Below, piece by piece: positions 158-59,116 of a stretch of 64,000 nucleotides of DNA. How positions within the stretch are numbered: the stretch's first letter is position 1; each line of letters opens with the position of its first letter. The position numbers and the translations under genes are program-made. A model generated the notes under the pieces. It was not told the origin of the DNA, did no database searches, and was given only the letters and a program-made list of their open reading frames with translations. Source of the DNA: a virus (Duplodnaviria > Caudoviricetes); the IMG/VR virus record IMGVR_UViG_3300026085_000093, positions 32,001 through 96,000 of that record, one strand, 5' to 3'.

Positions 158-1279
158 ATGAAGTATAATGCATGGAATTATAACGATCTAAATGCTTTTC
201 ACGTAGAATTAAGTACACGATGCAATGCAGCGTGTCCAGGCTGTCCAAGATTCTTACGTAATAGCACTAATGTCGATCCGGAAGTTGTGCAAACGGATAT
301 TACAATTGATTTGTTTAAAAGATGGTTTCCATTAGATCTTGTACAAAAATCTAAAAGTTGGATATTTTGCGGAACACATGGAGATCCATTGGCCTGTAAT
401 GATATATATGATATATTAGATTACATATGTTCTAACAGTATAGCAACTATACAAATTAACACCAATGGAGGCTTGCGCACTCCGGATCATTTCCGTGCAA
501 TAGGAGAATTGTTTTTAGAAACAACAAATGGTTTAAACCCAAAACCAATGCGTAAAATTACATTTAGTATAGACGGCTTAGAAGATACTAACCATATATA
601 CAGAAGAAATGTTATTTGGGATAAAGCATGGAATAACATGATTGCATATGCATTTACAGGTGCGCACACTGATTGGGACTTTTTACAATTCAAACACAAC
701 AAACATCAGGTAGAACTTAGCAGAAAAATTGCACAAGAAAATGGTATTAATTTTGTATTAAAAAATCCATTCGGTGTCGACGGCACAGGTATGCCAGCAT
801 ATGACAAAGACTACAACTTAGAATATGTCCTAGAACATGCTACAGACAACGGACATGATCATTACACTCCTGCTCCATTAGGTTGGGAAGCAGATATGCC
901 AGCGCCAGTAACAGAAGAAGGTGTAATTGCTTGTAACAGTTTTAGAACTTTGCCATATCCATACCATGAAGAACCAATGGTCGAACTATATATAGATGCA
1001 TTAGGAAGAGTTCATCCTTGTTGCTTTGTAGGAAATAAAATGCAAGGCCCTAGATATGTTCCTGAAGCAAGAGAAATGCAAACACTACAAAAAACACTAG
1101 GCGATGCAAATAATTTACATCATCATAGACTTGATCAGATTATAGACGGAGGCGTACTTGCAGTTTATTCAGAAAGTTGGCAATCAAAATCAATCAGTCA
1201 ATGCTGGGTCCAATGCGGAAAGTCCTGTGGAAAAGTCAGAGAAATTGACAAACTCTTCGAACTCTCCGAAGAAATGTAA
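158..1279 (+). CDS. Radical SAM protein with C-terminal SPASM/twitch-like domain
   Basis: CNAACPGC (CxxxCxxC), GTHGDP, TNGG, FSIDG, C-terminal GRVHPCC and CWVQC. Confidence 0.9.
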   Translation: MKYNAWNYNDLNAFHVELSTRCNAACPGCPRFLRNSTNVDPEVVQTDITIDLFKRWFPLDLVQKSKSWIFCGTHGDPLACNDIYDILDYICSNSIATIQINTNGGLRTPDHFRAIGELFLETTNGLNPKPMRKITFSIDGLEDTNHIYRRNVIWDKAWNNMIAYAFTGAHTDWDFLQFKHNKHQVELSRKIAQENGINFVLKNPFGVDGTGMPAYDKDYNLEYVLEHATDNGHDHYTPAPLGWEADMPAPVTEEGVIACNSFRTLPYPYHEEPMVELYIDALGRVHPCCFVGNKMQGPRYVPEAREMQTLQKTLGDANNLHHHRLDQIIDGGVLAVYSESWQSKSISQCWVQCGKSCGKVREIDKLFELSEEM

Positions 1280-2327
1280 ATGGCTAGATAATCACATCAG
1301 TATGGATACTTTGGGTAACTTACGGCCTTGCTGTAATTGGGATGACCGTGACAGAAACGATCTTGTAAAAGTTTCAGATATCAAAAAATACAAAGACAGT
1401 GACTTTTTAGCAAGTGTTAGGAAAGATCTTGATAATGGAATATTTCCCGAAGGATGTAGAGATTGTGAGGAAGAAGAATCTTATGGCTTTGAAAGTTTAC
1501 GATTGCAAAGCGATAGAAAATATAAGAACAATCGCAAAGACGCTGAGATAAAATTTGGAAACAAATGTAATCTTTCGTGTTCAATGTGTGGTCCTGTTAA
1601 CAGTAGTTTAATAGATACAGAACTAAGAAAATTAGATTCGCAAGATATACAACACAAACTGATACAAAGACAAAAATATTCATTTGATTTATGGTATGAA
1701 GACGAAAAAAATATACAAAAACTTGCCGAATTTTTACATGATAGAGATGAAATACGTTTCACAGGTGGAGAACCAACTGTAAATAATTATCTTCAAAAAT
1801 TTTGCGAATATTTGTTAGTATATGATAGTAAACCTAGTTTGCGTATTACTACAAATGGAAATAACTTACCTACGAAATTACTTTCAATCTTAGAAAAATT
1901 TGACGTTGAATGGCATTTTAGCATTGACGGTTATAAAGAAGTAAACGAATATATAAGGTATCCTAGCAATTGGGATAAAATTATAAAAAACATAGCAAAA
2001 GCACAACAAATCGGTACAAGTGATGTTTGTACAACTGTAAGTTGGTTGAATGTAAAACACATGGAACCATTAGGCGAATGGATCATGTCAAATAATTTTG
2101 AACGATGGGAAGTTTATCCTGTAAACAGTCCTAAAGAATTTGCACCTTGTCATGCACCTGATAATCATAAACAGATTTATGTAGATTTGTGTGCCACATA
2201 TACAGATCTTAAAAGAAGCTTGCCGGCAGTAATCCGAGAACGGAACATTGATTATTTTGATCAAGGTATGAGTTATCAAAAACATTTAGATAGATTGAGA
2301 GGAACATCTATTGAAACGGTATTTTGA
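1245..2327 (+). CDS. Radical SAM protein with N-terminal SPASM/twitch-like Cys domain
   Basis: KCKW...GNLRPCC...CRDC precedes CNLSCSMC, FTGGEP, TTNG, SIDG. Start placed at TTG 1245 (track start 1158 overlaps the previous gene by over 120 nt). Confidence 0.88.
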   Translation: MTNSSNSPKKCKWLDNHISMDTLGNLRPCCNWDDRDRNDLVKVSDIKKYKDSDFLASVRKDLDNGIFPEGCRDCEEEESYGFESLRLQSDRKYKNNRKDAEIKFGNKCNLSCSMCGPVNSSLIDTELRKLDSQDIQHKLIQRQKYSFDLWYEDEKNIQKLAEFLHDRDEIRFTGGEPTVNNYLQKFCEYLLVYDSKPSLRITTNGNNLPTKLLSILEKFDVEWHFSIDGYKEVNEYIRYPSNWDKIIKNIAKAQQIGTSDVCTTVSWLNVKHMEPLGEWIMSNNFERWEVYPVNSPKEFAPCHAPDNHKQIYVDLCATYTDLKRSLPAVIRERNIDYFDQGMSYQKHLDRLRGTSIETVF

Positions 2328-2367
2328 TAATGTTAGCGCTCAATTGTAACAAATATGTAAATACGTT

Positions 2368-15772: not shown

Positions 15773-16456
15773 ATGAGCAAATCAAAACAAATTACAGCCC
15801 GCTTGCAAGATGCAGGCATTCGCTATTGGGCCGGCGACAACATTTCAGAAGTCCTACAAGCAGGCGACAAAGAAGAACTTATTGAAGATGCTACAGTAGC
15901 ATTTGAAGGTGTACTAGATGCACTACTAATCGATCGACATAACGATCCTAATTCACAAGGTACTGCAAGGCGTCTTGCTAAGATGTACTTTAATGAAATT
16001 ATGGCAGGACGATATGATCCTATTCCAAGTGCTACAGCATTTCCAAACCATGTAGATGAAGGTTACAAAGGTATGTTAGTTGTAAGAAGCGAACTTAAAA
16101 GTATGTGTTCGCATCATCATCAACCAGTAAACGGTGTAGCATATATTGGTATTATTGCCGCTGATACACTTATCGGACTTTCAAAGTATACACGTATTGC
16201 ACAATGGTGTGCTAGACGTGGTACACTACAAGAAGAACTTAATAATGTTATTGCAAATGAAATACAGAAAGCAACAGGAAGTCCTAACGTAGGTGTGTAC
16301 ATTCAAGCAACACATGGTTGTTGTGAAAATAGAGGTATTGGTGCACACAGCAGTCTTACACAAACAACTGTACTACGTGGTGCATTCTATGATGATCCTA
16401 GTACTAAGAAAGAGTTTATGGATAATATAAAACTACAACAGGAATTTGCTTGCTAA
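15773..16456 (+). CDS. folE: GTP cyclohydrolase I
   Basis: SMCSHH, GLSKYTRI, LQEEL, HGCCENRG. Confidence 0.96.
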   Translation: MSKSKQITARLQDAGIRYWAGDNISEVLQAGDKEELIEDATVAFEGVLDALLIDRHNDPNSQGTARRLAKMYFNEIMAGRYDPIPSATAFPNHVDEGYKGMLVVRSELKSMCSHHHQPVNGVAYIGIIAADTLIGLSKYTRIAQWCARRGTLQEELNNVIANEIQKATGSPNVGVYIQATHGCCENRGIGAHSSLTQTTVLRGAFYDDPSTKKEFMDNIKLQQEFAC

Positions 16457-16562
16457 TGTTTGAAATTAATTATTCTTTTACACAACCTTACTACAATACA
16501 TTCATTGTTAATCTGCAACCTAAATACGATCTAGCAGAAAGATTTATCAAGGCAAAAGCAGA

Positions 16563-18534: not shown

Positions 18535-18540
18535 TAGTGC

Positions 18541-19776
18541 ATGACGAATGAAATAGAAGATTTATACAAAAATTTTTGTGTCCATCCTTTTGTTAAAATG
18601 TTTGTGACAACAACAGGGCATATGAAAGCCTGTTGTTATGCAAAACAATTAGATTCAGACGATATTAATATTCTAGGCAAGGATGTCGATGAAGTATGGA
18701 ACAGCAAGACTTTACAAAAATTAAGACACAAATTCAATCAAAGAATCATCCCTAAAAATATCTGTAAAAGTTGTATTGAAAGTGAAGAACAGGGAATCAT
18801 TTCAAACCGACAGTATGAAAATCATAAATGGAAATCATTAGCCGATTATTATTATAAAAATGCCCATACAGTTGTTCCTAGTCCTCTGAGTTTTGATTTG
18901 AGAATGAGCAACGAATGTAACTTGCAGTGCGTGATGTGCCTCCCTACATTGAGCAATCAAATTGCAAAGAACATGCTAGAATATAATAAATTCGGCAAAA
19001 GCAATCCTTATACCAATAGTAAAGACCTAGAAGTTCTTTCTACATCATCTAATAATTTCAACCAGCGATTTGTTGACCATATACTTGAAAATGCAAAAAG
19101 AACTCAAGAGATTGTGGCAGTCGGCGGCGAGCCGTTTGTGATGAAGGGATTTACATCTTTGATAGAAGAATTAGTGAATAGAAAAGAAAGCGGTCATATA
19201 AAGGTACACATAATTTCAAATGGCACAATTATCAAAGAATCATGGATAGAAAAATACCTTACAAAGTTTAAGCATGTAAACTTATCAATAAGTTTGGATG
19301 CTACTGGAAAAGTTTTAGAATATGTTCGATACCCTAGTTCTTGGTCTGCATTGGAAAGCAAGATTTTAAGATCTAAAAAAATATGCGACCAATATGAGAA
19401 TTTTCAAATTACCTTAGAGCCTACAATACAATTGCTAAATCTAAAAGATTTGCCAAATTTGCTTGACTTTATTAAACAAAATAAGTTTCCTTTTAATACA
19501 ACATTTTTAGATTGGCCAGAGCCATTACATTTTGCCAACTCACCCATTGATTACAGAATTGAAATTGTAAAAAAAATTGAAACTTTCTTACCAGAGTTAA
19601 AAACTTTAGACCTAATAGACGACTACAACTGGTTAGATTGGATTAAAACGGAGCCACAAAAAACTTTATCAGATAAACAACGTGATTATTTTAGATACAT
19701 GTTGGATTATTTTGACAGTACAAGAGCAACAAAATTCTTAGATCTTTATCCTGAATTTGGTTTTTTAAAAGATTGA
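18541..19776 (+). CDS. Radical SAM protein with N-terminal SPASM/twitch-like domain
   Basis: FCVHPF...KACC...CKSC, then CNLQCVMC, VGGEP, SNG, SLD. Confidence 0.9.
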   Translation: MTNEIEDLYKNFCVHPFVKMFVTTTGHMKACCYAKQLDSDDINILGKDVDEVWNSKTLQKLRHKFNQRIIPKNICKSCIESEEQGIISNRQYENHKWKSLADYYYKNAHTVVPSPLSFDLRMSNECNLQCVMCLPTLSNQIAKNMLEYNKFGKSNPYTNSKDLEVLSTSSNNFNQRFVDHILENAKRTQEIVAVGGEPFVMKGFTSLIEELVNRKESGHIKVHIISNGTIIKESWIEKYLTKFKHVNLSISLDATGKVLEYVRYPSSWSALESKILRSKKICDQYENFQITLEPTIQLLNLKDLPNLLDFIKQNKFPFNTTFLDWPEPLHFANSPIDYRIEIVKKIETFLPELKTLDLIDDYNWLDWIKTEPQKTLSDKQRDYFRYMLDYFDSTRATKFLDLYPEFGFLKD

Positions 19777-35872: not shown

Positions 35873-37162
35873 CTAAGATAATATTATAACAGTCCTTACA
35901 AAACTTTCATAGAACAAGTCACTAAGGAAATATCCATAAATGACTGGGCTCGTATCGTAATTTCGTAGAAAATATCCTAGTACCATTGCAATCAGTATAC
36001 ATGCTATCATCCATTCGTGTATAGGAAAGATAACAACACTTATTACACTTATAGTAGTTAGGATCAATGTATTTGCATATACTCTATATTGCTTATAAAG
36101 ATACACTATTTGACCTAACAGATTAAAACCATACCAACTTAAAAGTAAACATATCAATGTCACTACAGGTATAAAGTAAAGTATAGAAGACAGTTTGTTT
36201 ACTGTGTTTTCTATATTAAATTGATAACCACTTTCTAACATCAAGTAGTATACAATTACTTCACTACCCGTAATAGGTATAGCAAGGATTAGCAAAGGCA
36301 ACAAACTAGATAATGCTCCGCTATTGTTAGCAGCCTCTGCGGCAGCAATGCTTTTAAGTACAGGCTTTTTAAAAAAGCGTTTTACAATGCCTGCACTAGC
36401 ATAACTACCAAGAATATTTGTTATGCCAGGAATAAGACCGCACCAAAATCCAATAAAGCTACCTAACAGGCTTGGACCAAATGTGCCTTTTCCTATTGCA
36501 TACTTACTTATCTTGCTAGGTTGGGAAATAGAAATGTTATGAATTTTTAGTATCTCAGGAAACAGATATAATCCAATCATTACACTTGCAAAAGGTATTC
36601 CTAAACTAAGATAAAAATTGTTAAAAACAAGAAACTGATCAAATGTAATTGGATCAATTCCTTGATGTGATATTAATCCTCCAAAACAAAACAGTAATAA
36701 TGTCAAAAGTTTATTCTGTTTTGTAAAAAATGTAATCATACATATTGCAACTAGTATTACAATTGTTTGTATAATACTGTTATAAAATTTGAATACATGC
36801 ATAATACTAGGCAAGGCAACTAAAAACAAACACATTGCAAATGCTACACCAACGGTGCTACTAATTGCGTTACTTGTTACAGCAAGGCCGCCTGCGCCTT
36901 TTTGAAACATTTTATGTCCGTATCTTGCTGTGCTAATTGCAGTAGCATCTCCGGGTATACCGTATAAGATTGCTGTAACACTATTAGTATAGTTAGTAGT
37001 AATAAGTATAGCAACATAACACGCCATAATATTAACCGCACTAGTTGACGCTAAAAACGGGTATAAGACACCAATAGCAACAAATGGACCAGCACCAGGT
37101 ACTAAACCGGCTAAAAGACCAGTTAGTAAACCGATACCACTCCAAATTCCTAATTCAATCAT
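35873..37162 (-). CDS. tctA: Tripartite tricarboxylate transporter large subunit
   Basis: GL.PG.G, YGIPGDATA..T, G.IPG, AAEAANNS; about 11-12 TM helices. Confidence 0.85.
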   Translation of the reverse strand: MIELGIWSGIGLLTGLLAGLVPGAGPFVAIGVLYPFLASTSAVNIMACYVAILITTNYTNSVTAILYGIPGDATAISTARYGHKMFQKGAGGLAVTSNAISSTVGVAFAMCLFLVALPSIMHVFKFYNSIIQTIVILVAICMITFFTKQNKLLTLLLFCFGGLISHQGIDPITFDQFLVFNNFYLSLGIPFASVMIGLYLFPEILKIHNISISQPSKISKYAIGKGTFGPSLLGSFIGFWCGLIPGITNILGSYASAGIVKRFFKKPVLKSIAAAEAANNSGALSSLLPLLILAIPITGSEVIVYYLMLESGYQFNIENTVNKLSSILYFIPVVTLICLLLSWYGFNLLGQIVYLYKQYRVYANTLILTTISVISVVIFPIHEWMIACILIAMVLGYFLRNYDTSPVIYGYFLSDLFYESFVRTVIILS

Positions 37163-38090
37163 TAACTATTATTTTTCTATCAACTACGCTGTTTGGTGTA
37201 ATCATTTCTTTATCGTTGTTGCTAATTTTACAACACATTTCTCTGCATACTTCAGGACATTTACCCCAAGTTAACAAGTTACTAAAGTTTAAAAATTTAT
37301 CTTTAATACTATCTAAACCTTCTGATATGTGTCCTAGAGAACTTATGTCGTTATCTATCCAACAACAAGGATAATAGTTACCTTGAGAATTTATATAATG
37401 CATATCGCCAGTATAACAGAAGGGTGCTAATTCGTCAAGTGTTTCTCTTTTTACATAGTCGAACCATTCTGGATTATAATAGTCTTTAATTTGACCATTA
37501 TTCGACATGTCATCATGTATAGTCCAACTTTTTTTAATTTTAAATTCATTCATGCCTATTTTTTTACTTAAGGCTATTGCTTCTTCAACTTGATGATGAT
37601 TGTGTTCAAAAACAATATACTTCCATCTAATCTGACATTTGCGTTTAGTAGTTGCTATAAGTTCAAAAAGTTCTTGTATTTTGTTCCAATTGCTGTTAAC
37701 TCGGTATATGCTATTAGTGTCTTGCAGTCCATCGATGCTAAGTTCAACAATACTAGACTCGGGCCATGTTTCTAGTACTCTTTGCCAAAACTCTTTTGTT
37801 TGCATACCGTTTGTTGTAACTTGCAATTCATTTGCCGAGAAAAAATGTTCTGAAATTTTGTGGAAATCAGGATGATATATAGGATCTCCTAAATTGCCTT
37901 GAAAAAATATGTAATCATATTTTTCAGGATTGGGCAAAAAATTTAGTAGCAAATCACTATCAATGTCTGACTTAGAACCAGGCCCGTGCATAGTTCTAAT
38001 ACATGCAGGACATGCTAATGGACATCTGTTGGTTAGTTCAATGTGCCAGCCTGTATATTTAAACTCGTCCAAAGGCCCATCTACGTTCAT
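37155..38090 (-). CDS. Radical SAM protein with C-terminal SPASM/twitch-like domain
   Basis: CPLACPAC, GNLGDP, TNG, SIDG, YPCCW; start ATG 38090 after GGTGG. Confidence 0.88.
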   Translation of the reverse strand: MNVDGPLDEFKYTGWHIELTNRCPLACPACIRTMHGPGSKSDIDSDLLLNFLPNPEKYDYIFFQGNLGDPIYHPDFHKISEHFFSANELQVTTNGMQTKEFWQRVLETWPESSIVELSIDGLQDTNSIYRVNSNWNKIQELFELIATTKRKCQIRWKYIVFEHNHHQVEEAIALSKKIGMNEFKIKKSWTIHDDMSNNGQIKDYYNPEWFDYVKRETLDELAPFCYTGDMHYINSQGNYYPCCWIDNDISSLGHISEGLDSIKDKFLNFSNLLTWGKCPEVCREMCCKISNNDKEMITPNSVVDRKIIVND

Positions 38091-38802
38091 AACACCACCA
38101 ACATTCTGTTTCACAATGATCTTCGAAATCGTTTAGTGCAGGACCATTTCTATTTTCACAAGACCTTGTAATGTCAAATAATTCCATAATATCATAGTGA
38201 TGATATAATTCTGCTACTTTCCTTTTATCATGACTAATAAAAGGTCTTACCATAGGAAACTTTTCGTCTTTTCCTCTCCAACTAGACCAATGGACTGCGT
38301 TTTCAGGTTCGTCTCTTTCTGCTGCCCTTGTATTCCAATCAGCATTAGAGATATCATCAGGATGTCCATCAAAATCAAACTCTATAGGTCTTGTGTATTT
38401 AGGATTACAAGGCCAAAAGTTTTTTCCTTCTTCTTCGGGAGGATTTGCTGTAATGCCTGCAAATGTAATATCAATATCTCTGTTTAAAATTAAATTCCTA
38501 ACAAGTTCTTCTTGTTTAGAATTATATTCTTCATATCTGCATACAGCACAATGTGTATCTTTGATTTCAATATTAGGATATCTATTTCGCATCCATTCAA
38601 TTACTCTTCTGGCAAATTTTATATTGTACGGTTTAACATCTGCTGTAGCAGTGATTGGTTGAATATATTCAATATCTATATTCTCATCAGTTATTTTTTT
38701 ACAAATCATATAAAGAATCATTGCACTGTCAGGTCCACCTGACAATTTTATACCAATTCGTTTAGTTCCATGTAAATCTATTGTAACTCCTTTTTCAATC
38801 AT
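38059..38802 (-). CDS. QueC-like PP-loop ATPase (7-cyano-7-deazaguanine synthase-like)
   Basis: LSGGPDSA PP-loop; RPF...DK; TRSC...HC..ECWWCYER zinc motif as in QueC. Confidence 0.65.
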   Translation of the reverse strand: MIEKGVTIDLHGTKRIGIKLSGGPDSAMILYMICKKITDENIDIEYIQPITATADVKPYNIKFARRVIEWMRNRYPNIEIKDTHCAVCRYEEYNSKQEELVRNLILNRDIDITFAGITANPPEEEGKNFWPCNPKYTRPIEFDFDGHPDDISNADWNTRAAERDEPENAVHWSSWRGKDEKFPMVRPFISHDKRKVAELYHHYDIMELFDITRSCENRNGPALNDFEDHCETECWWCYERRWAFGRV

Positions 38803-43535: not shown

Positions 43536-44173
43536 AAAAATTTGATCCTTTTATTCTTTTCGTTTTGTTCCCAGTTAATAATACTACCGTCTAACATCCC
43601 TTGTTCTATTTCAGAATAACTATTATGGCGCCAACAACTTGTAATAATAACTCTGTCCTCATCTGCATCATTATCTACTCCATGTATTTCTGGACCTTTA
43701 AACATCCATGGAGCAAATTCATTAGTTTTTTCGCTGACACTGTAAGGCATTACATATTTTTTAGTGCTTCTATCAAAATCTTCATAAAATGTTTGCGGAC
43801 TTACATCTTCAAACTTTCCACGCACAGCAAAGTTAAGAACAGCAGGTCTGTTTCTGTCTTGATGCGGTGGTGTGCCTCCTATAGGCGTGCTTGTGTATAA
43901 CATTGTGTCAGGTGTAATAGCAGGCTTAAACAACATTGCAAGTTCATAATGAAACTCGCTCCATTTATAGTTTTTACATTCTAATCTTGGATTAAACGCT
44001 TCATGCACTGTCCATCTAATATGGCCGCAATCAAATTGATACCAATCTTCATTATCAATATTTTCTAAATGATCTAGCAAATATTCTCTATCGTACCAAA
44101 GTGTCGGAAGTTCACGACAGTACGGTGTTGATTTTGTCTCTTCCGAGAACATCGACTTTGTCTCTTGCGTCAT
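43532..44173 (-). CDS. 2OG-Fe(II) oxygenase-like
   Basis: PPHQD.NR.AVLNF ... IHGV ... R; start ATG 44173 after GGTGG. Confidence 0.68.
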   Translation of the reverse strand: MTQETKSMFSEETKSTPYCRELPTLWYDREYLLDHLENIDNEDWYQFDCGHIRWTVHEAFNPRLECKNYKWSEFHYELAMLFKPAITPDTMLYTSTPIGGTPPHQDRNRPAVLNFAVRGKFEDVSPQTFYEDFDRSTKKYVMPYSVSEKTNEFAPWMFKGPEIHGVDNDADEDRVIITSCWRHNSYSEIEQGMLDGSIINWEQNEKNKRIKFL

Positions 44174-44699
44174 CGTTCCACCTTTCATAATTTGTTTGTA
44201 TAATTTCAAAATACTTTATCATTGTATCTGCATCTGTTACTTGAAAACAGGTCATAGGGTTGTGTGTAAAATCTTCGTACTTCATATGTTTCATAATCAA
44301 ATTATCGATTACCATCGCATATCTATGACTACGCTTTTCTCCTAAACCTTCTCTGCTCATATCTTCTGCCATTCCTATAGTTTCTGCCCATTTGCCTGTA
44401 GGATCTGGCAACGCTTGTATATTTTGCAAACCATCGTTTTTAATCCATGCACGTTGTACATATGTGTCATCTATACTTGTAAACCAAATTTCGTCTAAAC
44501 CTAGTTCTTTAAATCTATCATAATAAAAATCATAAGTTCTTGCTTGACTTGCAGCGTATTCGACTAAAAATAATCCAGGTAAACCTAACAACAATATTTT
44601 TTTGTTTTCAAATAATTCGTACGTATCAATCCACCGTGTTGTTGTACCAACTTTGTGCATAGTCTTTATGTTAGGTATTTTATCTCCTACTCTAATCAT
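44112..44699 (-). CDS. Peroxiredoxin (Prx5/redoxin)-fold protein lacking the peroxidatic Cys
   Basis: VGD.IP, LPGLF (cf. PGAFTPTC), SIDD.YV..AW, DP.G, S.RYAMVI. Confidence 0.75.
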   Translation of the reverse strand: MIRVGDKIPNIKTMHKVGTTTRWIDTYELFENKKILLLGLPGLFLVEYAASQARTYDFYYDRFKELGLDEIWFTSIDDTYVQRAWIKNDGLQNIQALPDPTGKWAETIGMAEDMSREGLGEKRSHRYAMVIDNLIMKHMKYEDFTHNPMTCFQVTDADTMIKYFEIIQTNYERWNDDARDKVDVLGRDKINTVLS

Positions 44700-46545
44700 T
44701 AATTTCCTCCGTAGATTTTAAAAAACATCTTTTACTTTTACGTCCATACCAAAATAAATGTCTTGCATGATCTGTTATACTATGATATACATTTGGCTTA
44801 ACCGAAACACTTGTGTTTACATCTTTTAATGGCTTGCTATCAAAAAACCAACTGTGCCAATTTTTTGTAAATGTTTCTACATTCCTTTTTTTACCATATA
44901 AATCTAAAATGTGTTTGTTAAATTTTAGTGCTTCTTCAACATCAACATTGTATTTTGCTAAACAAAGCATTTTAATTTGTTTGTAAAAATCATCTATATT
45001 TTTATAAAGTGTTGCAGCAGTAGCACCATTGTCTTGAAAGTGGAAATCGTCGCCTCCTTCAATAGGTCTGCCCCATGTTTTCATATTAAACAAACTACTC
45101 TTTAAACTATTTGTATGATCTTCATATTCTTTATTAAACACAGTACCACTATTTTTACTCCAATCAAATAATAATTTGTAAAATTCAATTAATGGTATGT
45201 CATGTTCTCTTTGCAAATATGTTGCAACTACTTGTGATACTCCATGATAATGATGCGGAATAACAATGCCTTTTGCAAAGAAATACATATCTATATAATC
45301 TTGAGTCGTAAAACTATTGCTTTGGTGACAGACAAAATCAATTTCTCCTTCGCTTGCGTCAGGATATGTATTACCGCCTGCAGGTGCAGGTGTTGGCACA
45401 TATTTTAATCCGTATTTGTCTTTATACTCCTCTTTTGCAAAAGGTGTGTTAGGAACAATACTTAGAGGGTGTACAGTTAAAGCATGATCACTACCTAGTT
45501 CGAGTATTTTTCCTATACCTTCTATCCAACTGTCTAGTGTTTCTTCTGGCAAGCCAACTATGAGTTCGCAATAATTATCAACACCTGCTGCATTGTATTC
45601 TCCTACCATTTCCTCTAATTTAGTATTAGCAATGTTGATACGCTTAATAGCTTTAAGAGTATCAGGATTCATACTTTGTAATGCAATTGTTACACCACGT
45701 TTTATATTTGCTTCTTGATTTAATATACGTCCTAATTCTACAATGCGTTTAGGTTGTTGTTTTGCAGTGCTGTAATCTATCTGTCTAGGAAATCCTGTCG
45801 CTTTTCGACAATGTGCAATGTATTTTATAAAATCAACATCTCTGTCAAATATGCCTACATTACTATCTGCAAAATACAAAAAGTCAATATTATGATCAAC
45901 TACCCAATCTATTTCTCTTATAACTCTAGCGTATTCAAATTTTGCAATTTTATTATAATACAATGCTTCTTGATCACAAAATGTGCAAGCATATGGGCAA
46001 CCTCTGTTAGTTTCAATGATTGCACTATATTGTCTGTCAGGCTTCATGAGGCTATCCATTAGCCCGCTTAGATAAGGACTAGGAATGTCTGTAATGTCTT
46101 TATCTGGTTTAGGAGGTATATAACTTTCTACAGTCATAATACCAGGTGCATCTAAATTACCCTTTAATATTTCTGCAAAAGTTCTTTCTCCTGCATAGGT
46201 AACAATAACATCACAGATGTCTTTGTTTTTTGAAAGCCATGTTTGATCGTATGGCACTTGTGGGCCTCCCATTACAATCAAACAATTAGGAAATTTGTTT
46301 TTTACTGCTCGTGCAAGTTCTTGGCTAATATTCCAATTCCAAACATATGTGCTAATTGCAAATACATCAGGATCGTTTATATTCTCCATATAATTTTCTA
46401 CAGTGTCACGTTCGAATATAATGTCACCCAGTTCCCAACCTTCAACATTAGCCCTACAGTATTCCCATACATAAGCAACACTGAGAGGCAGAAAAGTTGC
46501 TTCAGCAATAACATTATTAATTTGAGTGAAATATACTTTCTTCAT
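44692..46545 (-). CDS. Cobalamin-binding radical SAM protein (class B-like)
   Basis: N-terminal B12-binding domain (S.YVWN, MGGPQ), ETNRGCPYACTFC, IVGLP.ET. Confidence 0.9.
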   Translation of the reverse strand: MKKVYFTQINNVIAEATFLPLSVAYVWEYCRANVEGWELGDIIFERDTVENYMENINDPDVFAISTYVWNWNISQELARAVKNKFPNCLIVMGGPQVPYDQTWLSKNKDICDVIVTYAGERTFAEILKGNLDAPGIMTVESYIPPKPDKDITDIPSPYLSGLMDSLMKPDRQYSAIIETNRGCPYACTFCDQEALYYNKIAKFEYARVIREIDWVVDHNIDFLYFADSNVGIFDRDVDFIKYIAHCRKATGFPRQIDYSTAKQQPKRIVELGRILNQEANIKRGVTIALQSMNPDTLKAIKRINIANTKLEEMVGEYNAAGVDNYCELIVGLPEETLDSWIEGIGKILELGSDHALTVHPLSIVPNTPFAKEEYKDKYGLKYVPTPAPAGGNTYPDASEGEIDFVCHQSNSFTTQDYIDMYFFAKGIVIPHHYHGVSQVVATYLQREHDIPLIEFYKLLFDWSKNSGTVFNKEYEDHTNSLKSSLFNMKTWGRPIEGGDDFHFQDNGATAATLYKNIDDFYKQIKMLCLAKYNVDVEEALKFNKHILDLYGKKRNVETFTKNWHSWFFDSKPLKDVNTSVSVKPNVYHSITDHARHLFWYGRKSKRCFLKSTEEIND

Positions 46546-47695
46546 ATGTCTTATCTCCCGGAAATAACGGGATCTTTTCTCCTGCTCTACGCTTTGGTAT
46601 TTTACTATCTGCTGAACTTACACAACTTTGTGTTGTACAAGGCATTGGCTTATCAAACAGTTTAAATCCTGTTTCAATATTGCCAAGCGGAGCATCATGA
46701 CAAGAATATGATCGTTTTATAGAACCATCTGGTTCGCGGATGATAATGCTTCTGAATCCTGAACTACATTCCCATCCGCAGAATTTATTAAAATTAAAAG
46801 CATTAAAACGTTCTGCTTGGTCCATGTACCAAGTTTTTCCTTTAGAGTCTTTAAACTCTACCTGCATGTGCCAAGGAACACTCTTTTGCTGATGTAAATA
46901 TTTATCGTCTTTATCTACTCTGAAGTTTGGCTTTGGGCGTTCCGCCCATTTACGCTTTTCTTCTGTGTAGGCTCTTTGTGGCATTCCGTTCCAGAGTCTT
47001 TTAAGCATATCCCCAGTGTATCCATCAACCACTCTTGACGCAGTCGGATCCGATTGAGGCTTGAGGGTGACATTAATTCCTTGCTCGTGGAAGAATAGTG
47101 CGTTTTCCCAGTCTCTTTCAAACCAGTCTGGAACCATGACTTGATTAATTGTAACTTGAACATCGTTTTCCTGACATAAAATTAATTTATCTGCAAAGTC
47201 TTGCAACTTATCAACAGTATTTAAGTGTTCGGTATGTAGACTTGCAGTAATGCTTGCTCTATGAAACGGCTTAACACGTTCTACATATTCTTCAAACCAC
47301 TTCATTGGTCGAGAGCAGTTTGATGTCATATGTATGGAAGTATAATTAGTATTAGGCACATCATCAGCCAGATGCCGAAGAATATCCAAGTATCCTGGAT
47401 GAAAAGTAGGCTCACCCCCAGACAAACTAAAATGAAAGCTATTAAAACCGTTATCACGTGCTTGCCTCTTTATTTCATCTATTGTTCTTAAACATAACTC
47501 AGTTGGTCTATGATCTTTGCGATCTGATCTAGCGTAAGGCCAACAATAACTGCAACGATAATTACAAAACCTGCCAAGAAGCCAAGACACAGTAAACAAA
47601 TCTCTATATAACATAGTGCGTTGGCCGACGCTAACGAGGTCATCGAACGGAATTTTTGTAAAATCGTATTCGCTCCACTTTAAATCTTCAGTCAT
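46517..47695 (-). CDS. Radical SAM protein with C-terminal twitch-like domain
   Basis: CNYRCSYC, SGGEPT, TSN; C..G...PDG...SC...C...C. Confidence 0.9.
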   Translation of the reverse strand: MTEDLKWSEYDFTKIPFDDLVSVGQRTMLYRDLFTVSWLLGRFCNYRCSYCWPYARSDRKDHRPTELCLRTIDEIKRQARDNGFNSFHFSLSGGEPTFHPGYLDILRHLADDVPNTNYTSIHMTSNCSRPMKWFEEYVERVKPFHRASITASLHTEHLNTVDKLQDFADKLILCQENDVQVTINQVMVPDWFERDWENALFFHEQGINVTLKPQSDPTASRVVDGYTGDMLKRLWNGMPQRAYTEEKRKWAERPKPNFRVDKDDKYLHQQKSVPWHMQVEFKDSKGKTWYMDQAERFNAFNFNKFCGWECSSGFRSIIIREPDGSIKRSYSCHDAPLGNIETGFKLFDKPMPCTTQSCVSSADSKIPKRRAGEKIPLFPGDKTYEESIFHSN

Positions 47696-52024: not shown

Positions 52025-53237
52025 TCCAATACTCCTTAAATTGCGGAGCAGCACTAATAAAATCTGTATTTCTTATTTTATCTAAATCAATAATGTATTC
52101 TTTAAAATATTTCCACAATTTCTGTTGTTCTGCATGTTCTGGCTTTTTAAGTTGTTGTGCTAATTTGGTTATACCTACAGAATAGTAATTATCCTGGCCT
52201 GGCCATTTTATTTTATCATCAATATCTTCAATCATAGATGCTGCTTGTTCTTTCATTTCTGCACTTAACACATCTAAACTAAGATAGGCAGGATTAACAA
52301 CTGTATTTGAAAAACTAAAACTACAAAAATCTTTATATTTTTGAACAAAATTCCAAGCATCTCTAATGGCAAATACATTTGCAGCCATTGTTGTAAATGT
52401 TATACACACTTCTTCAAGGTTATCAAATGTTTTAAGTTTTTCAATCATGTTCTCAACAACAGATATGTCATAATTATTGCCGCCTCTTGTATAGTTGTAC
52501 AGTTCTCCTGTACCTTCTATACTAATATAAAATATAAGACTTTTAAACTGTCGTAAATGATCAAACAATTGCTCATCATCTACTGTAGCATTTGTGCTTA
52601 TGTCAATAGTAACTTGTTTATTAAGTCCTAAGTCAATTAGCTTTTGTAAAATTGCTCGATTTTTAGGCTCATACATTGGTTCGCCGCCGCGTATAGCAAC
52701 ATAACACAAATCTTCAAACACACTAGTATCGGCAAAAATGTTATCTATTACAGAATCATCTAACACAAAATGTCCATAATCGCTGTTTCTCCAATAACCT
52801 GTCATATTTTTAAGTAATTTTTTTTCATCTGCAACCCATGCTGTGCTAACTGCACCACTACAATGTATACATTTTAAGTTGCATTTGTTACTAGGAATAA
52901 CATCAAGCATTAAAAAACTAGGTGTGTTAATATCTGTTACTATAGGTTTATTATTATAGCAGGTTGCTCGGTCAACAAATAGTGTTTCAAAAAACAATCT
53001 ACGACTGTGTCCACTTAGTTCTTCTTTTTTATAACACTTTTCGCAGCCTTTGTTTTGTTGAAACTGTGAATGATCTTTTCTTAGTTGTGTCCAAGGATTG
53101 TCATTCCATATGTCCACTAAAGAATTATTATTTAAATTACCTAGTGGAACTTTATAAATTGCATCAGGCTTTACATTGCCATCATAATCAATGGCAACGC
53201 ATTTAAACGGCGCAATGCAGTTATAGTTATTAAGCAA
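52017..53237 (-). CDS. Radical SAM protein with a degenerate N-terminal SPASM/twitch-like domain
   Basis: NCIAPF...KPDAIY (CC lost)...CEKC; CNLKCIHC, GGEP, STNA. Confidence 0.9.
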   Translation of the reverse strand: MLNNYNCIAPFKCVAIDYDGNVKPDAIYKVPLGNLNNNSLVDIWNDNPWTQLRKDHSQFQQNKGCEKCYKKEELSGHSRRLFFETLFVDRATCYNNKPIVTDINTPSFLMLDVIPSNKCNLKCIHCSGAVSTAWVADEKKLLKNMTGYWRNSDYGHFVLDDSVIDNIFADTSVFEDLCYVAIRGGEPMYEPKNRAILQKLIDLGLNKQVTIDISTNATVDDEQLFDHLRQFKSLIFYISIEGTGELYNYTRGGNNYDISVVENMIEKLKTFDNLEEVCITFTTMAANVFAIRDAWNFVQKYKDFCSFSFSNTVVNPAYLSLDVLSAEMKEQAASMIEDIDDKIKWPGQDNYYSVGITKLAQQLKKPEHAEQQKLWKYFKEYIIDLDKIRNTDFISAAPQFKEYWNE

Positions 53238-54276
53238 AATAGTCCTCCTGAGAACCTTGTCTTGCTAAATCTTGTGTTACACAATGCACACCACCATCCC
53301 AAAAATACTGATGTCTAAAGTTCCAGTAGATAGGTGTAATACCTTGTTTTTCCATTCTTGCAAATGCTTCTTTGTTTGTGCCAGTGCAAATAACATACTC
53401 TTCAGACACACTTAACACATTTACATCAAAAACTGTTTCATCTACGTAACCTGTCCAATGACTAAAATATTCATCGATAAAATCTTTGTAAAAACGTTGT
53501 TTACGCATTTTATCAAATTCGTCTGGAAGTTCTGTTTCGCTAGACACTTCAATAATATCCCAGTTTTGTAATTTTTCTGGTATCCATTTTTTGTTCCATG
53601 TCATTAGTACACCCGGCTTTAATAGTGCAATCTTGCCGTCACAGTGTCCGCCAACAGCAACTTCGTTCCATCTAAACTCATCGCCTAGTTCTTTTTTCAG
53701 CCACTCTAATCCAACATCGGTACCTTTGCCTTTTTTAAGATCTTTATTACCACTTTGAGAATGAAACAAATCTTTACCACACTTAATAATGTTTGCAGCA
53801 TGGAACATAATTTGATCGTTTTCATTATATGGAGGTGCTTTGCTTGTAAGTTTTGCCATAGGCATACTTAACCATCTATAACCATTGTCGTAGAATTGCC
53901 TACTAATATCTGTATATGCAAGATTTTCAAAAAATCTGCCGCCGCTTGCTGTATAGTGCTCTACGATAGTGTTGCCAAACACACCTAAAACATCTCTTGG
54001 CATAAGTGGATGGTTAGGAAAATGACTACCAAACCATGGCGTTTGTACAGTTGCTTTATCCCAACTATATTGCATTAGATTGTTAGGACGATGTACTGTA
54101 ACATCTAAATCTTCAAGTATCTTTACTAAAGATTCTAAGTCTTCAGCAGTTTCTTCATTTACACGTTTAAGTAAATCTCTTGCATCTGGGTCAGGAACAT
54201 CGTTAAAATCTTCAGCATTGTAAGTGCCGCCTACAATGATATCAGTAAGTTTTTGAAATTCGGTAAAAGTTGCCAA
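53230..54276 (-). CDS. Amidinotransferase (glycine/inosamine-phosphate amidinotransferase family)
   Basis: PRD, HCDG, DVN, GGVHCVT catalytic Cys; TTG start after GGAG. Confidence 0.9.
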   Translation of the reverse strand: MATFTEFQKLTDIIVGGTYNAEDFNDVPDPDARDLLKRVNEETAEDLESLVKILEDLDVTVHRPNNLMQYSWDKATVQTPWFGSHFPNHPLMPRDVLGVFGNTIVEHYTASGGRFFENLAYTDISRQFYDNGYRWLSMPMAKLTSKAPPYNENDQIMFHAANIIKCGKDLFHSQSGNKDLKKGKGTDVGLEWLKKELGDEFRWNEVAVGGHCDGKIALLKPGVLMTWNKKWIPEKLQNWDIIEVSSETELPDEFDKMRKQRFYKDFIDEYFSHWTGYVDETVFDVNVLSVSEEYVICTGTNKEAFARMEKQGITPIYWNFRHQYFWDGGVHCVTQDLARQGSQEDYFA

Positions 54277-55490: not shown

Positions 55491-56892
55491 TAAATATATC
55501 TTTCATTTCAGGAAATGTTTCTGCAAATGTTATGCCACGTTGCTTGTCACATAAGTCTAAAAATTCTTTCATTTCAGGCAAACGTCTGCTCCAATCTTCT
55601 GATTCCATAAAGCTAAGAATACCATTAAGACGTTTTATTCCATATTCTGCACTACGAAATTGTTCGTATGTAACTTTACCTTTGTGCCAACTAGGAATAC
55701 CAAGTTCCCAATTTTGCTCCCACCAAGGATACCATGCTTCATACTTGCGTCTCGTTTCTTCTTTGAACCATTTGGGCAATACTTTTACGTTTAGATGCGC
55801 AGGCCAATAAACAAAGTGCTGACTAATACCACCTGCGCCGAAGGGCCACATGTTTATCTTTTTAAAACCTTGTTCTAATTTCCATTGAATAAAGTCTGGA
55901 AGATAATATACATTAAGTGCTTGTACTGCACATGCAATAGTAACTTCTACATTATCACTAGTTTGTGTATCTAAAATATGAAACACTTCTTCTTGACGTT
56001 TCCATTCGCTTGGATAACGAATGTAACTATTCATTTCTTTAATACTATCTATCGAATAGTGAAAACGCACAAGTTTGAATTCTCGCCATAAATCAAATAA
56101 ATCCTCTCTCCATTCAACTCCATTTGAGTTGTAACGTAGTTCAAGATCTTTTGCATAGCCCATTTTAATTGCATGTTCAAGTATTTCATAATGTTCCTCA
56201 ATAATAAGACTCTCGCCGCCAGCAAAATAAATCTGCTGCATACTTGGCATTTGTTCATAGAATTGTTCCCAGAACACAGGATTTTGTTTGTGCCAGTTGT
56301 AACTACTTCCGTTTGTACTACCTTTGTTTTCCCATTGCATAATTTCTTTGAGAGACTCATTTTTAACAGCAGGAAAAATTGCTTTCCAATCTTTAATCCA
56401 TCCTGAACTATCATGCGGTGAACACATTACACATGCAAGTTGGCATTTTGTTCCAAAACGTAAATCAATATATGCTAAGTTTGGAGGAACACTGCCGTCT
56501 TCATTTGTTTCTTGTAGAATTTTATCTACATCAACACGCTGACTCCAGTAGTCTGTTTCCCACATACGTTTACTACGATGACCTGCTGCTTCTTCCTTAA
56601 AACATTTTAAACAACTAGGTGGTTTTTCACCAGCAAGCATTTGCTTGCGTACATTCTTCATGTATGTGCTGTTCCAAGCACTTTGAAAGTCACTTACATT
56701 TAAATTGTTAGGTCGTCCTTCTTCATCTTTGAGAATACCTACTTGTCCGCCATGTTCTTTATCATTTGTTGCACCAACTGAACTTGCATTTGCTGTGCAA
56801 CATACCCGCATACTACCGTCTGGCCTTGTGCTTAAATGCACCCAAGGTAATAAACAAAATGTGTCGCTAATCTTTGTGTGTTTTGTATCCAT
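55483..56892 (-). CDS. Radical SAM protein with N-terminal SPASM/twitch-like domain
   Basis: FCLLPW.H...RVCC...CLKC; CQLACVMC, AGGE, NSNG, SID. Confidence 0.92.
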   Translation of the reverse strand: MDTKHTKISDTFCLLPWVHLSTRPDGSMRVCCTANASSVGATNDKEHGGQVGILKDEEGRPNNLNVSDFQSAWNSTYMKNVRKQMLAGEKPPSCLKCFKEEAAGHRSKRMWETDYWSQRVDVDKILQETNEDGSVPPNLAYIDLRFGTKCQLACVMCSPHDSSGWIKDWKAIFPAVKNESLKEIMQWENKGSTNGSSYNWHKQNPVFWEQFYEQMPSMQQIYFAGGESLIIEEHYEILEHAIKMGYAKDLELRYNSNGVEWREDLFDLWREFKLVRFHYSIDSIKEMNSYIRYPSEWKRQEEVFHILDTQTSDNVEVTIACAVQALNVYYLPDFIQWKLEQGFKKINMWPFGAGGISQHFVYWPAHLNVKVLPKWFKEETRRKYEAWYPWWEQNWELGIPSWHKGKVTYEQFRSAEYGIKRLNGILSFMESEDWSRRLPEMKEFLDLCDKQRGITFAETFPEMKDIFNE

Positions 56893-57145
56893 TGTTTATC
56901 GCTTTACAAAATTTTTTGCATATAGGATCAGGATTTGTTTCCCAACCTTCAGTATTAAAATGCTTACTGAATGCTTCACTATCTATTATAGCATCTAATC
57001 CATTTTTTGCAATAGAATTCCAATCTTTATTTAAACTTTTTATGTAAGGAGACATGTCAGGTTCAGTCAGTGTCCAGCAACATGGCCAGGCATGTCCGTC
57101 GGTATCTATAATAATGCCTTTTGTCCTACATTTAATTTTTGTCAT
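56867..57145 (-). CDS. Stand-alone SPASM/twitch-like domain
   Basis: KC...DG.AWPCCW...PICKKFC; no radical SAM core. Confidence 0.75.
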   Translation of the reverse strand: MTKIKCRTKGIIIDTDGHAWPCCWTLTEPDMSPYIKSLNKDWNSIAKNGLDAIIDSEAFSKHFNTEGWETNPDPICKKFCKAINNGYKTHKD

Positions 57146-57791
57146 ACCATTTCCATTCCCCTACTTGATCTGCCCAAGCAAAGACTTGTTCTTTCATTTC
57201 TTTATCTACAATTTTATAATCCCAATCTCTAGTGTTTAATTTTATGTCCATTTCTAATTTATTTTTTCTTGCTAATTCAATAGCTTTAGGTACACTTTCA
57301 TAATTAAACGTAAAAACTAAAAAGTCCCAACATACTACTGCACCCGATTTATTTGCAGCAATCATATGCTCCCATGCTCTGTCAAAATCTACATCAATTC
57401 TATATTTACTACTCTGTTCTGCTGTTATACCATCTATACCAAAATTTAAACGTAGTTGATCTTTCCAACGTTTTGCTATACTTACATACCAATCCTTCTG
57501 TCTTAGGCCGCCGTTTGTTGCTACTTGAACTTCTCTACCTGAAGCACATCCGTAATCTATCATTTCCTCTATATCAGGATGCATTAATGGATCGCCGTAG
57601 TCTCCGCAAAAATAAATTACCTTAACACCACTCGGTGTAGTGTCTATCATCTTCTTATAAGTTTCTAAGGGAAAATGTCTATATACTAATTTGCCCTCTG
57701 CATCTAACTCTGTTCTTGGACATAAAGGACATTTTGCTTGGCAGTAAGTTGTAGGACTAAATTCTAATGTTTCAAACTTTCTGTAATCCAC
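57132..57791 (-). CDS. Radical SAM core without an auxiliary domain
   Basis: CQAKCPLC, GDYGDP, TNGG, GIDG; paralogs continue into a SPASM domain at the point where this ORF stops. Confidence 0.85.
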   Translation of the reverse strand: MDYRKFETLEFSPTTYCQAKCPLCPRTELDAEGKLVYRHFPLETYKKMIDTTPSGVKVIYFCGDYGDPLMHPDIEEMIDYGCASGREVQVATNGGLRQKDWYVSIAKRWKDQLRLNFGIDGITAEQSSKYRIDVDFDRAWEHMIAANKSGAVVCWDFLVFTFNYESVPKAIELARKNKLEMDIKLNTRDWDYKIVDKEMKEQVFAWADQVGEWKWYDKN

Positions 57792-59116
57792 TAAACATAT
57801 TCCTCTAATTCAGGAAAATAATCTAACATTTTTTTATTGTTAATACGTTCACAGAGTTTAATATATTTTGTAGATCTTTCAGATAATTTTTCTTGACCGT
57901 TAAAATTATTTTTCATATAATTTAAACAATCATTTGTAAAGTATTCCCACCTGTCAATAAAATCTTTATTATTTGTCGACAGTTTTACTTTTTCAATACT
58001 GTCTTGCATTTCGTCTATACATCTTTGTCTAATAGAATCTGGTAATTCTAAACTAGATACAGGATTATCTAGTACTAGACTAGTATGAAACAATAAATCA
58101 TACTCTAACCAATTGTTTAAAATATCAGTCCAACGTAAAGCACTAAACATATTAAATGTTACAGTACCTTTTAGAATAATATTATTTAGATTGAAATTTT
58201 TTATTCTACGTAAGTTATTTTTTACAAGTTCAATATCTCCACGCATTCTAAAAAAATCATATGTATCAAACGATGCATCTATACTACAAACAATTTCTAC
58301 TTCTTTAAATTGCATCCAGTATTTTAAATATTTTGATATATCTTTGACGTTTAAATTTGTATTGTATACTAATTTTTGATCTTGCGGATTTTTACTTGTC
58401 ATATATTCTAGCCAGTCTATATGTTCTGGAGTGAGTAGAGGTTCGCCGCCTGTAAAATGAATCATAGACGCAGATGCAAGTAATTCTTTTATATCCTCTT
58501 TATAACTACTTTCGCTATTAAGAGCAACTTTAAATAATTTAGAAATATTTTTATGTGTAACAGGTTCGTATAAATCATCTACTTCTTTACCAACATCATA
58601 TGATGTTTCTTCATATATGTCAAAGGTTTCTTTATCAGTTAAACTTGTTACCCATAATGTACTACTATTCGGACCGCAATGCATACACTGTAAATTACAC
58701 AAGTTGCTAGGTCTTATTTCTATTCTTTCAAGATCAGTAAGTCTAGATTCGACTGGATTATTTTTAATAAAATCTATTAGGGCGTCTTTATCTTCAACTT
58801 GTCTTTCAAAATCACCAAAGAAATCCATTCTAGGAGATTTACTATTAGAGTCTTCTGCATTCCAACAACTTACACAATTTTTATTTCTTTCTCCGCAATA
58901 AAGATCATTTCTAATATCTTTATAGTCATCATTGTTAAAAAGTTGTGTAAAAGGTTGCTTCTTCCAATTACCTACACGTTCTCTACCTCTGTAACAAGTA
59001 TACACAGAACCAGACTGATCTAAGTCAGCATTTATATAAGGTGCAAAGCAAAAAGTATCAGGATTTAATCCTAATCTTTCTAATTCGCTTCGCATATCTT
59101 CGAGTGTTTTTATCAT
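57791..59116 (-). CDS. Radical SAM protein with N-terminal SPASM/twitch-like domain
   Basis: FCFAPY...YTC...CVSC; CNLQCMHC, TGGEP, NTN, SID. Confidence 0.9.
   Translation of the reverse strand: MIKTLEDMRSELERLGLNPDTFCFAPYINADLDQSGSVYTCYRGRERVGNWKKQPFTQLFNNDDYKDIRNDLYCGERNKNCVSCWNAEDSNSKSPRMDFFGDFERQVEDKDALIDFIKNNPVESRLTDLERIEIRPSNLCNLQCMHCGPNSSTLWVTSLTDKETFDIYEETSYDVGKEVDDLYEPVTHKNISKLFKVALNSESSYKEDIKELLASASMIHFTGGEPLLTPEHIDWLEYMTSKNPQDQKLVYNTNLNVKDISKYLKYWMQFKEVEIVCSIDASFDTYDFFRMRGDIELVKNNLRRIKNFNLNNIILKGTVTFNMFSALRWTDILNNWLEYDLLFHTSLVLDNPVSSLELPDSIRQRCIDEMQDSIEKVKLSTNNKDFIDRWEYFTNDCLNYMKNNFNGQEKLSERSTKYIKLCERINNKKMLDYFPELEEYV

Follow-up and report, generated by a model that had tools for sequence, protein, structure and literature searches.

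Tandem radical SAM genes with a predicted N-terminal twitch domain in an uncultured marine giant phage: family membership, probable ancestry and a possible role in sugar or glycan tailoring

The DNA analysed here, called the window throughout, is a stretch of 64,000 nucleotides (bases 32001-96000) of the 236,366-bp IMG/VR virus record IMGVR_UViG_3300026085_000093, which comes from an uncultured marine giant phage and is 66% complete according to CheckV. The GC content of the window is 32-37%, and the coding strand changes from plus to minus near 33.9 kb. Our subject is a set of nine open reading frames (ORFs) that encode radical S-adenosylmethionine (SAM) proteins in which a Cys-containing domain precedes the CxxxCxxC motif; genes are named below by their first position in the window. 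A first-pass annotation, made from the sequence alone, had described the nine ORFs and their unusual domain order, and all of them were found intact at the coordinates it gave. Each matches, over the full length of the model (positions 1-4 to 387-398), the NCBIfam entry NF033640, which is named N_Twi_rSAM ("twitch domain-containing radical SAM protein"), spans an N-terminal twitch domain and the core, and has a curated cut-off of 170 bits. The scores range from 171.1 to 416 bits, with gene 38822 borderline. Pfam Radical_SAM also matches all nine (E ≤3.1e-6), eight of them above the gathering score of 29.5 bits and 54303 at 27.9 bits. We regard the assignment of these genes to this architecture and to NF033640 as nearly certain. 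The architecture is thus already catalogued and is not, as had been proposed, that of a new radical SAM subfamily. The family is one without a characterised reaction: PHROGs gives no more than "radical SAM domain-containing protein", and our literature search found no paper on NF033640, on any member, or on any enzyme with an N-terminal twitch or SPASM domain. The condition that the first-pass annotation had set against itself, that the family is already well characterised, is accordingly true of its cataloguing and not of its biochemistry. As to gene boundaries, 1245 has no ATG and could start at TTG 1158, GTG 1227 or TTG 1245, its first Cys codon overlapping the stop codon of the preceding gene, and the gene caller places the start of 38822 near 39931, giving a protein of 369 aa.

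Upstream of CxxxCxxC, eight of the nine proteins contain the complete pattern C-x12-20-G-x4-C followed, about 40-60 residues on, by CxxC, and 52017 has the same pattern with an Asp at the second Cys position (Table 1). Agreement of this kind far exceeds chance. When 319 family members of a set of 89 related loci are aligned, the first Cys and the CxxC pair show little or no variation, the second Cys is present in 305 sequences, and an adjacent fifth Cys occurs in 84%; in 38822 and 57791 the "CC" pair is reduced to its first Cys. Because only four Cys outside the core are conserved across the 319 sequences, the domain is best read as a one-cluster twitch domain rather than a two-cluster SPASM domain. 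The seven or eight Cys expected of the latter were not found, and the second SPASM motif, CxxCx5Cx3C, is absent though Pfam SPASM matches. Within the core, positions C123, C127, C130, G186, G187 and E188, which make up CxxxCxxC and the GGE SAM motif, are invariant in 56 sequences.

The replacement of the middle Cys pair in 52017 (KPDAIY), which the first-pass annotation had noticed, recurs elsewhere in the family. The second ligand position is Asp in 13 of the 319 sequences, which fall into three clusters or clades, and the G-x4-D spacing is kept in every one. Because the Asp is conserved within its clade and because 52017 has a ratio of nonsynonymous to synonymous substitution rates (dN/dS) of 0.033 against its ortholog, the substitution is a conserved functional variant and not a product of decay. 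Asp-ligated [4Fe-4S] clusters are known in other proteins. The earlier suggestion that the auxiliary-cluster ligands vary within the family was therefore well founded.

Pfam, profile and structural comparisons agree that the N-terminal region is a twitch domain, as had been suspected. Pfam SPASM (PF13186) matches the N-terminus of five of the nine proteins above the gathering score. A PDB search with the single sequence of 47692 gave no match, and a profile built from 56 family members aligned at positions 7-77 with residues 164-237 of BtrN (E 2.7e-8), a segment that we take to hold the four auxiliary-cluster Cys of that enzyme. The AlphaFold 2 model of 47692 has a mean predicted local distance difference test score (pLDDT) of 95, and the model of its isolated N-terminal 100 residues one of 93.7. 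When the isolated-domain model was compared by Foldseek with 350,542 chains, BtrN ranked first (TM score 0.59; 1.9 Å over 75 columns for 4m7t). BtrN residues 163-246 were again first in an exhaustive VIA alignment against 48,161 chains (Z 4.2, root-mean-square deviation 3.7 Å, 82 residues), in which only five chains reached Z ≥2, three of the four besides BtrN being the SPASM domains of CteB, SuiB and ChlB. The absolute scores are modest, as the model is small and lacks a cluster; the specificity is clear. The modelled domain also consists of a β-hairpin followed by helices, like BtrN at about residues 160-250. For the full-length 47692-type model no full-length structural match was obtained, only matches to the core (TM about 0.4), and the nearest cores included those of SkfB, SuiB, CteB and anSME, and also BlsE, viperin and MoaA.

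Table 1. Radical SAM genes and associated features of the window. Ligand positions were taken from the HMM (hidden Markov model) alignment; loci are those of the set of 89.
Position	Strand	Feature	Evidence	Predicted auxiliary-cluster ligands	Radical SAM motif from
1245..2327	+	N_Twi radical SAM paralog	NF033640 221.9 bits	C11 / C29 (C30) / C71, C74	C108 (x3 C x2 C)
18541..19776	+	N_Twi radical SAM paralog	NF033640 275.2 bits; Pfam SPASM residues 13-78	C13 / C31 (C32) / C75, C78	C126
38822..40030	-	N_Twi radical SAM paralog, most divergent	NF033640 171.1 bits	C41 / C59 (then G60) / C94, C97	C135
47692..48855	-	N_Twi radical SAM, conserved core ortholog	NF033640 407 bits	C8 / C26 (C27) / C76, C79	C123
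48842..49915	-	N_Twi radical SAM paralog, variable set	NF033640 230.8 bits	C6 / C24 (C25) / C65, C68	C102
52017..53237	-	N_Twi radical SAM paralog, Asp25 at second Cys site	NF033640 224.6 bits; Pfam SPASM 40.7 bits	C7 / D25 (then A26) / C65, C68	C119
54303..55490	-	N_Twi radical SAM paralog, variable set	NF033640 250 bits	C6 / C27 (C28) / C72, C75	C114
55483..56892	-	N_Twi radical SAM, conserved core ortholog	NF033640 416 bits	C13 / C31 (C32) / C94, C97	C150
57791..59116	-	N_Twi radical SAM paralog, variable set	NF033640 234.2 bits; Pfam SPASM residues 23-85	C23 / C41 (then Y42) / C81, C84	C140
158..1279	+	Sister-family radical SAM, C-terminal twitch-like domain	Same cluster as 60830; best NCBIfam match NF033640 core, below cut-off
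37155..38114	-	Radical SAM paralog, C-terminal-twitch family	NCBIfam and clustering
60830..61897	-	Radical SAM, C-terminal-twitch family, conserved core gene	≥40% identity in 37 loci
46517..47695	-	Radical SAM, third type, overlaps 47692 by 4 nt	Pfam Radical_SAM 55.9 bits
57132..57791	-	219-aa radical SAM core without twitch domain	Pfam Radical_SAM; clusters with 60830; dN/dS 0.14
56867..57145	-	Stand-alone 92-aa twitch-like gene	Called as gene; dN/dS 0.084
44692..46545	-	B12-binding radical SAM, class B, methyltransferase-like	Pfam B12-binding and Radical_SAM
53230..54276	-	StrB1-like amidinotransferase between N_Twi genes	StrB1 (PDB 1bwd) E 1.9e-25, residues 37-346
62104..63012	-	Conserved array-start gene, weak methyltransferase-like lead (Atlas)	≥40% identity in 24 loci
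62999..64000	-	Conserved array-start gene, runs off window	≥40% identity in 28 loci

The whole record contains at least 17 Radical_SAM matches and 11 N_Twi members, two of which lie just outside the window. Within the window, the B12-binding gene 44692 and the 219-aa gene 57132 are radical SAM genes beyond those of the first-pass list. A redoxin/AhpC-like protein is encoded directly downstream of the B12-binding radical SAM gene (the two together at 44112-46545, minus strand), and a second radical SAM ORF, of 670 aa, lies outside the window at record position 106545-107039. The main array is tightly packed, its sole gaps being 239 and 206 bp, and neighbouring genes have overlapping stop and start codons. 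In our reading of the array it holds no spare small ORF besides the 92-aa twitch-domain ORF.

Genes 158, 37155 and 60830 form a sister family that has core motifs in common with the N_Twi proteins and for which the NF033640 core is the best or second-best NCBIfam match. The twitch HMM missed their C-terminal domain with default filters and found it weakly with the filters off (E 0.012-0.6; 0.017 for the C-terminus of 158). In profile-profile comparison by hhalign, the N-terminal twitch profile aligned with the C-terminal 90 columns of the 60830 family with a probability of 85.6% (E 5.6e-6), the PCC and CxxC segments being superimposed. The N-terminal twitch is thus homologous to the C-terminal domain of co-resident paralogs, and "permuted", the word used in the first-pass annotation, is a fair description. 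The same annotation had credited these three genes and 46517 with the usual C-terminal arrangement, which is upheld for the three and not for 46517, whose family gave a probability of only 7% in the corresponding comparison. Gene 46517 has relatives of at least 40% identity in 49 loci, with a median of 80%.

Genes 57132 and 56867 provide a further arrangement. The 92-aa twitch-like gene is in the next frame and overlaps the end of the 219-aa core gene by 14 nt, and this split is kept without insertions or deletions in a 93% relative and also in a lineage of 40-47% identity. Both parts are under purifying selection. By its clustering, 57132-57791 is a split member of the C-terminal-twitch sister family. 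The two ORFs could represent two subunits or a programmed frameshift. Complex prediction for the pair gave a score of 0.76, the best of three controls reaching 0.01; the mark applied to this score is one that 51 of 78 solved complexes and 2 of 108 mismatched pairs attain. The runs had at least 78% of contacts in common, with a partner pLDDT of at least 79, and in the predicted complex the hairpin of the twitch protein (residues 8-17) packs against the core's first strand (residues 6-15). This outcome may only reflect the likeness of the split halves to solved single-chain enzymes.

Fused forms exist as well. When 1.84 billion protein representatives were searched, many of the best matches were single ORFs of about 800-1400 aa that contain between two and four complete N_Twi units; one example is at L098:12058-14610 (minus strand). 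The tandem arrays, in which stop codons overlap the next start, thus carry the twitch domain at either end of a protein, as a separate gene and within fused units. Permutation by tandem duplication and a shift of the gene boundary would produce such a series, and it is the most likely origin of the N-terminal position.

The first-pass annotation had further proposed that the family expanded in this phage lineage, and the comparative data lead elsewhere. The eleven copies are mutually 17-34% identical, the two outside the window reaching 38%, and clustering at 45% identity divides the 373 family genes of the 89 related loci into 85 groups. A tree of 111 sequences does not pair any two window paralogs as exclusive sisters; in it, ten of the eleven copies are nearest to a gene of another genome, the exception being 1245, which is on a long branch. 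Orthologs of at least 40% identity were found for 47692 in 53 of the 89 loci and for 55483 in 63; for the remaining copies, orthologs were confined to four near-identical relatives or to a few other loci. In five other large phage records, between 2 and 15 copies exceed the cut-off, the highest number coming from a complete genome of 328 kb, and these records have in common only the same few orthologs. The 1.84-billion search returned 9,797 clusters at 50% identity (E ≤1e-30), and the nearest Atlas clusters are 90-100% viral. Among cultured phages, megablast with 16 kb of the array gave no match, and tblastn found only relatives of 21-26% identity in KVP40-like Vibrio phages and a Ralstonia jumbo phage. 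Each of the nine genes is intact and under purifying selection: dN/dS for N_Twi copies against the 93% relative is 0.03-0.12 (0.063 for 47692, 0.12 for 48842, 0.041 for 54303). Judged from sequence divergence and tree topology, the array paralogs are very probably ancient rather than the result of a lineage-specific expansion.

The family is not confined to phages. Of 201 sampled Bdellovibrionota genomes, 45 have matches above the cut-off, many of them in multiple copies on contigs of 0.2-3.8 Mb. One genome has seven copies within 20 kb between housekeeping genes (BipA and Dus). Another chromosome carries orthologs of 55483, 46517 and 60830 together, at 61%, 61% and 47% identity, alongside a 35% homolog of 62999 and a 36% homolog of 51098, and four genes of glycosyltransferase family 2 (GT2) and one of the GT-C type (PMT_2) adjoin this core. 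N_Twi arrays of the phylum are located at G172:C1:1404000-1436000 and G034:C1:2372000-2411999. Such orthologs imply gene exchange between jumbo phages and Bdellovibrionota, in either direction. A literature search on Bdellovibrio radical SAM arrays found nothing relevant.

Across loci, the arrays have a recurrent order: 62999-like, 62104-like, 60830-like and 55483-like genes, then variable genes, then 47692-like and 46517-like genes. The conserved core consists of 62999, 62104, 60830, 55483, 47692 and 46517, and the variable set comprises the other N_Twi genes, B12 radical SAM genes, the amidinotransferase and hydroxylase-like genes. The amidinotransferase (53230-54276), which the Pfam search at E 0.001 missed, belongs to the amidinotransferase superfamily by its aligned catalytic Asp, His and Cys in PRD, H-x-D and GG-x-HC segments, and arrays at 14 loci, which span several lineages, contain such a gene. 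Other embedded genes encode B12 radical SAM enzymes, a methyltransferase, a redoxin and Asp/Asn-hydroxylase-like and fatty-acid-desaturase-like proteins; desaturase-family genes occur in 16 phage loci and two bacterial ones, and Asp/Asn β-hydroxylase-family genes in 18 loci. Pfam gave nothing for most of the non-radical-SAM array genes, PDB sequence searches with 51098, 59113 and 42056 gave no usable match, and no IscU, A-type carrier or flavodoxin gene was found in the record, itself only 66% complete.

Outside the main array, 18541 is flanked by genes for folE (GTP cyclohydrolase I), a phosphoribosyltransferase and an N6/N4 DNA methylase (15773-22387, plus strand), and may serve base modification rather than the main array. 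Between 38822 and 37155 lies a weak QueC-like PP-loop protein (38059-38802, minus strand; 21.9 bits, the gathering score being 22), and 38822, which adjoins it, may have another substrate. A TctA-family tricarboxylate transporter permease, unusual for a phage, is encoded at the distal end of the array (35873-37162, minus strand; 193 bits). Upstream of the array is a fibre-like protein with an Mtd_N (major tropism determinant N-terminal) domain (30037-32013, plus strand), and two more plus-strand ORFs (32014-33967), convergent with the array, separate the two.

What might these enzymes do? Each would bind the radical SAM [4Fe-4S] cluster through CxxxCxxC, with SAM held at the GGE motif, and one auxiliary [4Fe-4S] cluster in the N-terminal twitch domain through four Cys (C8, C26, C76 and C79 in 47692), an Asp taking the place of the second Cys ligand in 52017 and its clade. 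By analogy with BtrN, SAM would be cleaved, a hydrogen abstracted from the substrate, and the auxiliary cluster used as an electron sink or relay. The paralogs would have been drawn from a very large gene pool common to aquatic jumbo phages and Bdellovibrionota, with the conserved core travelling with a variable set of tailoring enzymes, and the array would tailor a sugar, aminocyclitol or glycan-type small molecule in steps. We favour sugar or glycan tailoring because StrB1-like amidinotransferase genes lie in the arrays and because the bacterial relatives have a glycosyltransferase, aminotransferase and exporter context. In 20 bacterial neighbourhoods, the recurrent neighbours other than radical SAM genes are GT2, GT4, DegT-type sugar aminotransferases, an ABC-2 exporter with its ATPase, and PMT_2. 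Taken as a whole, with NF033640 enzymes, an ancient pool and sugar or glycan tailoring, this is the explanation that we think rather probable; for the sugar or glycan nature of the substrate by itself, the balance is about even. A bolder version is tentative and in our view a minority prospect: the arrays would constitute a mobile, combinatorially diversified radical SAM pathway, common to aquatic jumbo phages and Bdellovibrionota, that makes a heavily tailored, guanidinylated sugar- or aminocyclitol-type decoration by an oxygen-independent radical chemistry new to glycobiology, the N-terminal twitch having been permuted within tandem arrays whose intermediate forms are still extant.

Counts of neighbouring genes speak for a sugar or glycan substrate: glycan-type genes occur in 11 of the 20 bacterial neighbourhoods and in 1 of 20 control stretches taken 100 kb away on the same contigs, and with the five query-supplying loci removed, the figures are 6/15 and 1/20 (Fisher p 0.016). 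Several observations weigh against such a substrate. The queries of that test came from the test loci, GT2 genes alone are not significantly enriched (5/20 vs 1/20, p 0.09), and about half of the neighbourhoods have no glycan gene. The two array-start genes, 62104 and 62999, have no Pfam match, and the sugar evidence in the window is weak. Amidinotransferases act on many amines, the nearest core structures include peptide maturases besides BlsE, viperin and MoaA, and the Asp/Asn-hydroxylase-like and desaturase-like neighbours would also fit a lipid or protein substrate.

The last two points bear on other possible substrates. One scenario is that the enzymes are maturases of the kind that act on ribosomally synthesised and post-translationally modified peptides, introducing crosslinks or epimerisations into virion proteins, such as a fibre, or into small peptides. 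Most characterised SPASM and twitch enzymes do modify peptides, SkfB, SuiB, CteB and anSME are among the best structural matches to the core, a fibre-like Mtd_N gene adjoins the array, and Asp/Asn-hydroxylase-like genes co-occur. Yet the Pfam scan of the nine proteins, which returned nothing beyond Radical_SAM, SPASM and Fer4_12, revealed no recognition domain, and the two short gaps of the array, whose sole small ORF is a twitch domain, leave no room for a precursor, a distant substrate gene being possible. The bacterial contexts are of a polysaccharide type and the amidinotransferase points to a small-molecule amine, so that we consider peptide maturation unlikely.

Another scenario, which we hold to be somewhat less probable still, is that the substrates of at least some of the enzymes are nucleotides or DNA bases, as in a genome hypermodification of the 7-deazaguanine type. 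It would account for the folE, phosphoribosyltransferase and DNA methylase genes beside 18541 and for the sub-threshold QueC-like gene flanked by 38822 and 37155, and viperin and MoaA, both of which act on nucleotides, have cores among the nearest. However, no such genes accompany the main array and its core where these recur in the 89 loci, the orthologous bacterial core is found among glycosyltransferases, and the main array contains no DNA-modification enzyme.

A third possibility, to which we give the same low standing, is modification of lipids, such as lipid A or other lipids of the host membrane. The desaturase-family genes in phage and bacterial loci could be explained in this way, as could those for Asp/Asn β-hydroxylases, which we take to be the family of LpxO, and weak matches to the lipid synthase Tes/GDGT-MAS were obtained. 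Many other radical SAM families, however, match at least as well as Tes, a desaturase gene is as common in controls as near the bacterial arrays (1/20 vs 2/20), and the array contains no acyl-carrier or acyltransferase gene that we could see. As for the original proposal of a novel permuted subfamily recently duplicated within this lineage, the eleven copies in one record and the viral make-up of the nearest clusters speak for it, but it is refuted by the tree, in which the divergent copies lie nearer to genes of other genomes, and by the existing NF033640 family; the 45 Bdellovibrionota genomes also speak against it, and we regard it as having almost no chance of being right.

NF033640 is among the larger radical SAM families without an assigned reaction (about 9,800 clusters at 50% identity, E 1e-30), and giant phages each invest 10-15 genes in it. 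What the present work adds to the catalogued family is a conserved Asp at one ligand position, a set of permuted forms, the amidinotransferase, and orthologs in bacteria together with their glycan surroundings. Given the division into core and variable genes, the amidinotransferase within the array and the glycan context in bacteria, 55483, 47692, 46517 and 60830 offer enzymologists a concrete starting set; they have 47-61% identical relatives in Bdellovibrionota, and an array-bearing member of that phylum may turn out to be culturable. The forms that exist side by side, with the twitch domain at either terminus, split off or fused, are for their part a rare natural series for the permutation of a cofactor domain.

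How do the arrays compare with known systems? The architecture of NF033640 is identical in all nine proteins, and only 52017 differs, with its Asp at one ligand position. SPASM enzymes such as anSME, SuiB, CteB, PqqE and SkfB have a related core (Z 11-13) and a related auxiliary-cluster domain; a full SPASM domain, however, is C-terminal and carries two auxiliary clusters on seven or eight Cys, whereas the domain described here is N-terminal, has four Cys and comes with no peptide-recognition domain or precursor that we could see. A T4-like marine environmental viral genome was reported to contain 12 radical SAM genes, which were linked to Fe-S metabolism (Nishimura et al. 2017, PMC5332604). 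That genome likewise belongs to an uncultured marine phage with a dozen radical SAM genes; the N-terminal twitch, the core-plus-variable layout and the pathway are absent from the paper. StrB1, the inosamine-phosphate amidinotransferase (PDB 1BWD), resembles 53230-54276 over nearly its full length with the catalytic residues aligned, whereas relatives of the phage protein also act on glycine, polyamines and saxitoxin intermediates. The closest parallel to the N-terminal domain is BtrN, the 2-deoxy-scyllo-inosamine dehydrogenase of butirosin biosynthesis (PDB 4M7S/4M7T) and the founding twitch-domain enzyme. Its twitch domain is C-terminal and its core is distant, not being among the top core matches, but its residues from about 163 to 246 match the N-terminal domain of the phage enzymes and display the same C...G-x4-C...CxxC pattern for one auxiliary [4Fe-4S] cluster.

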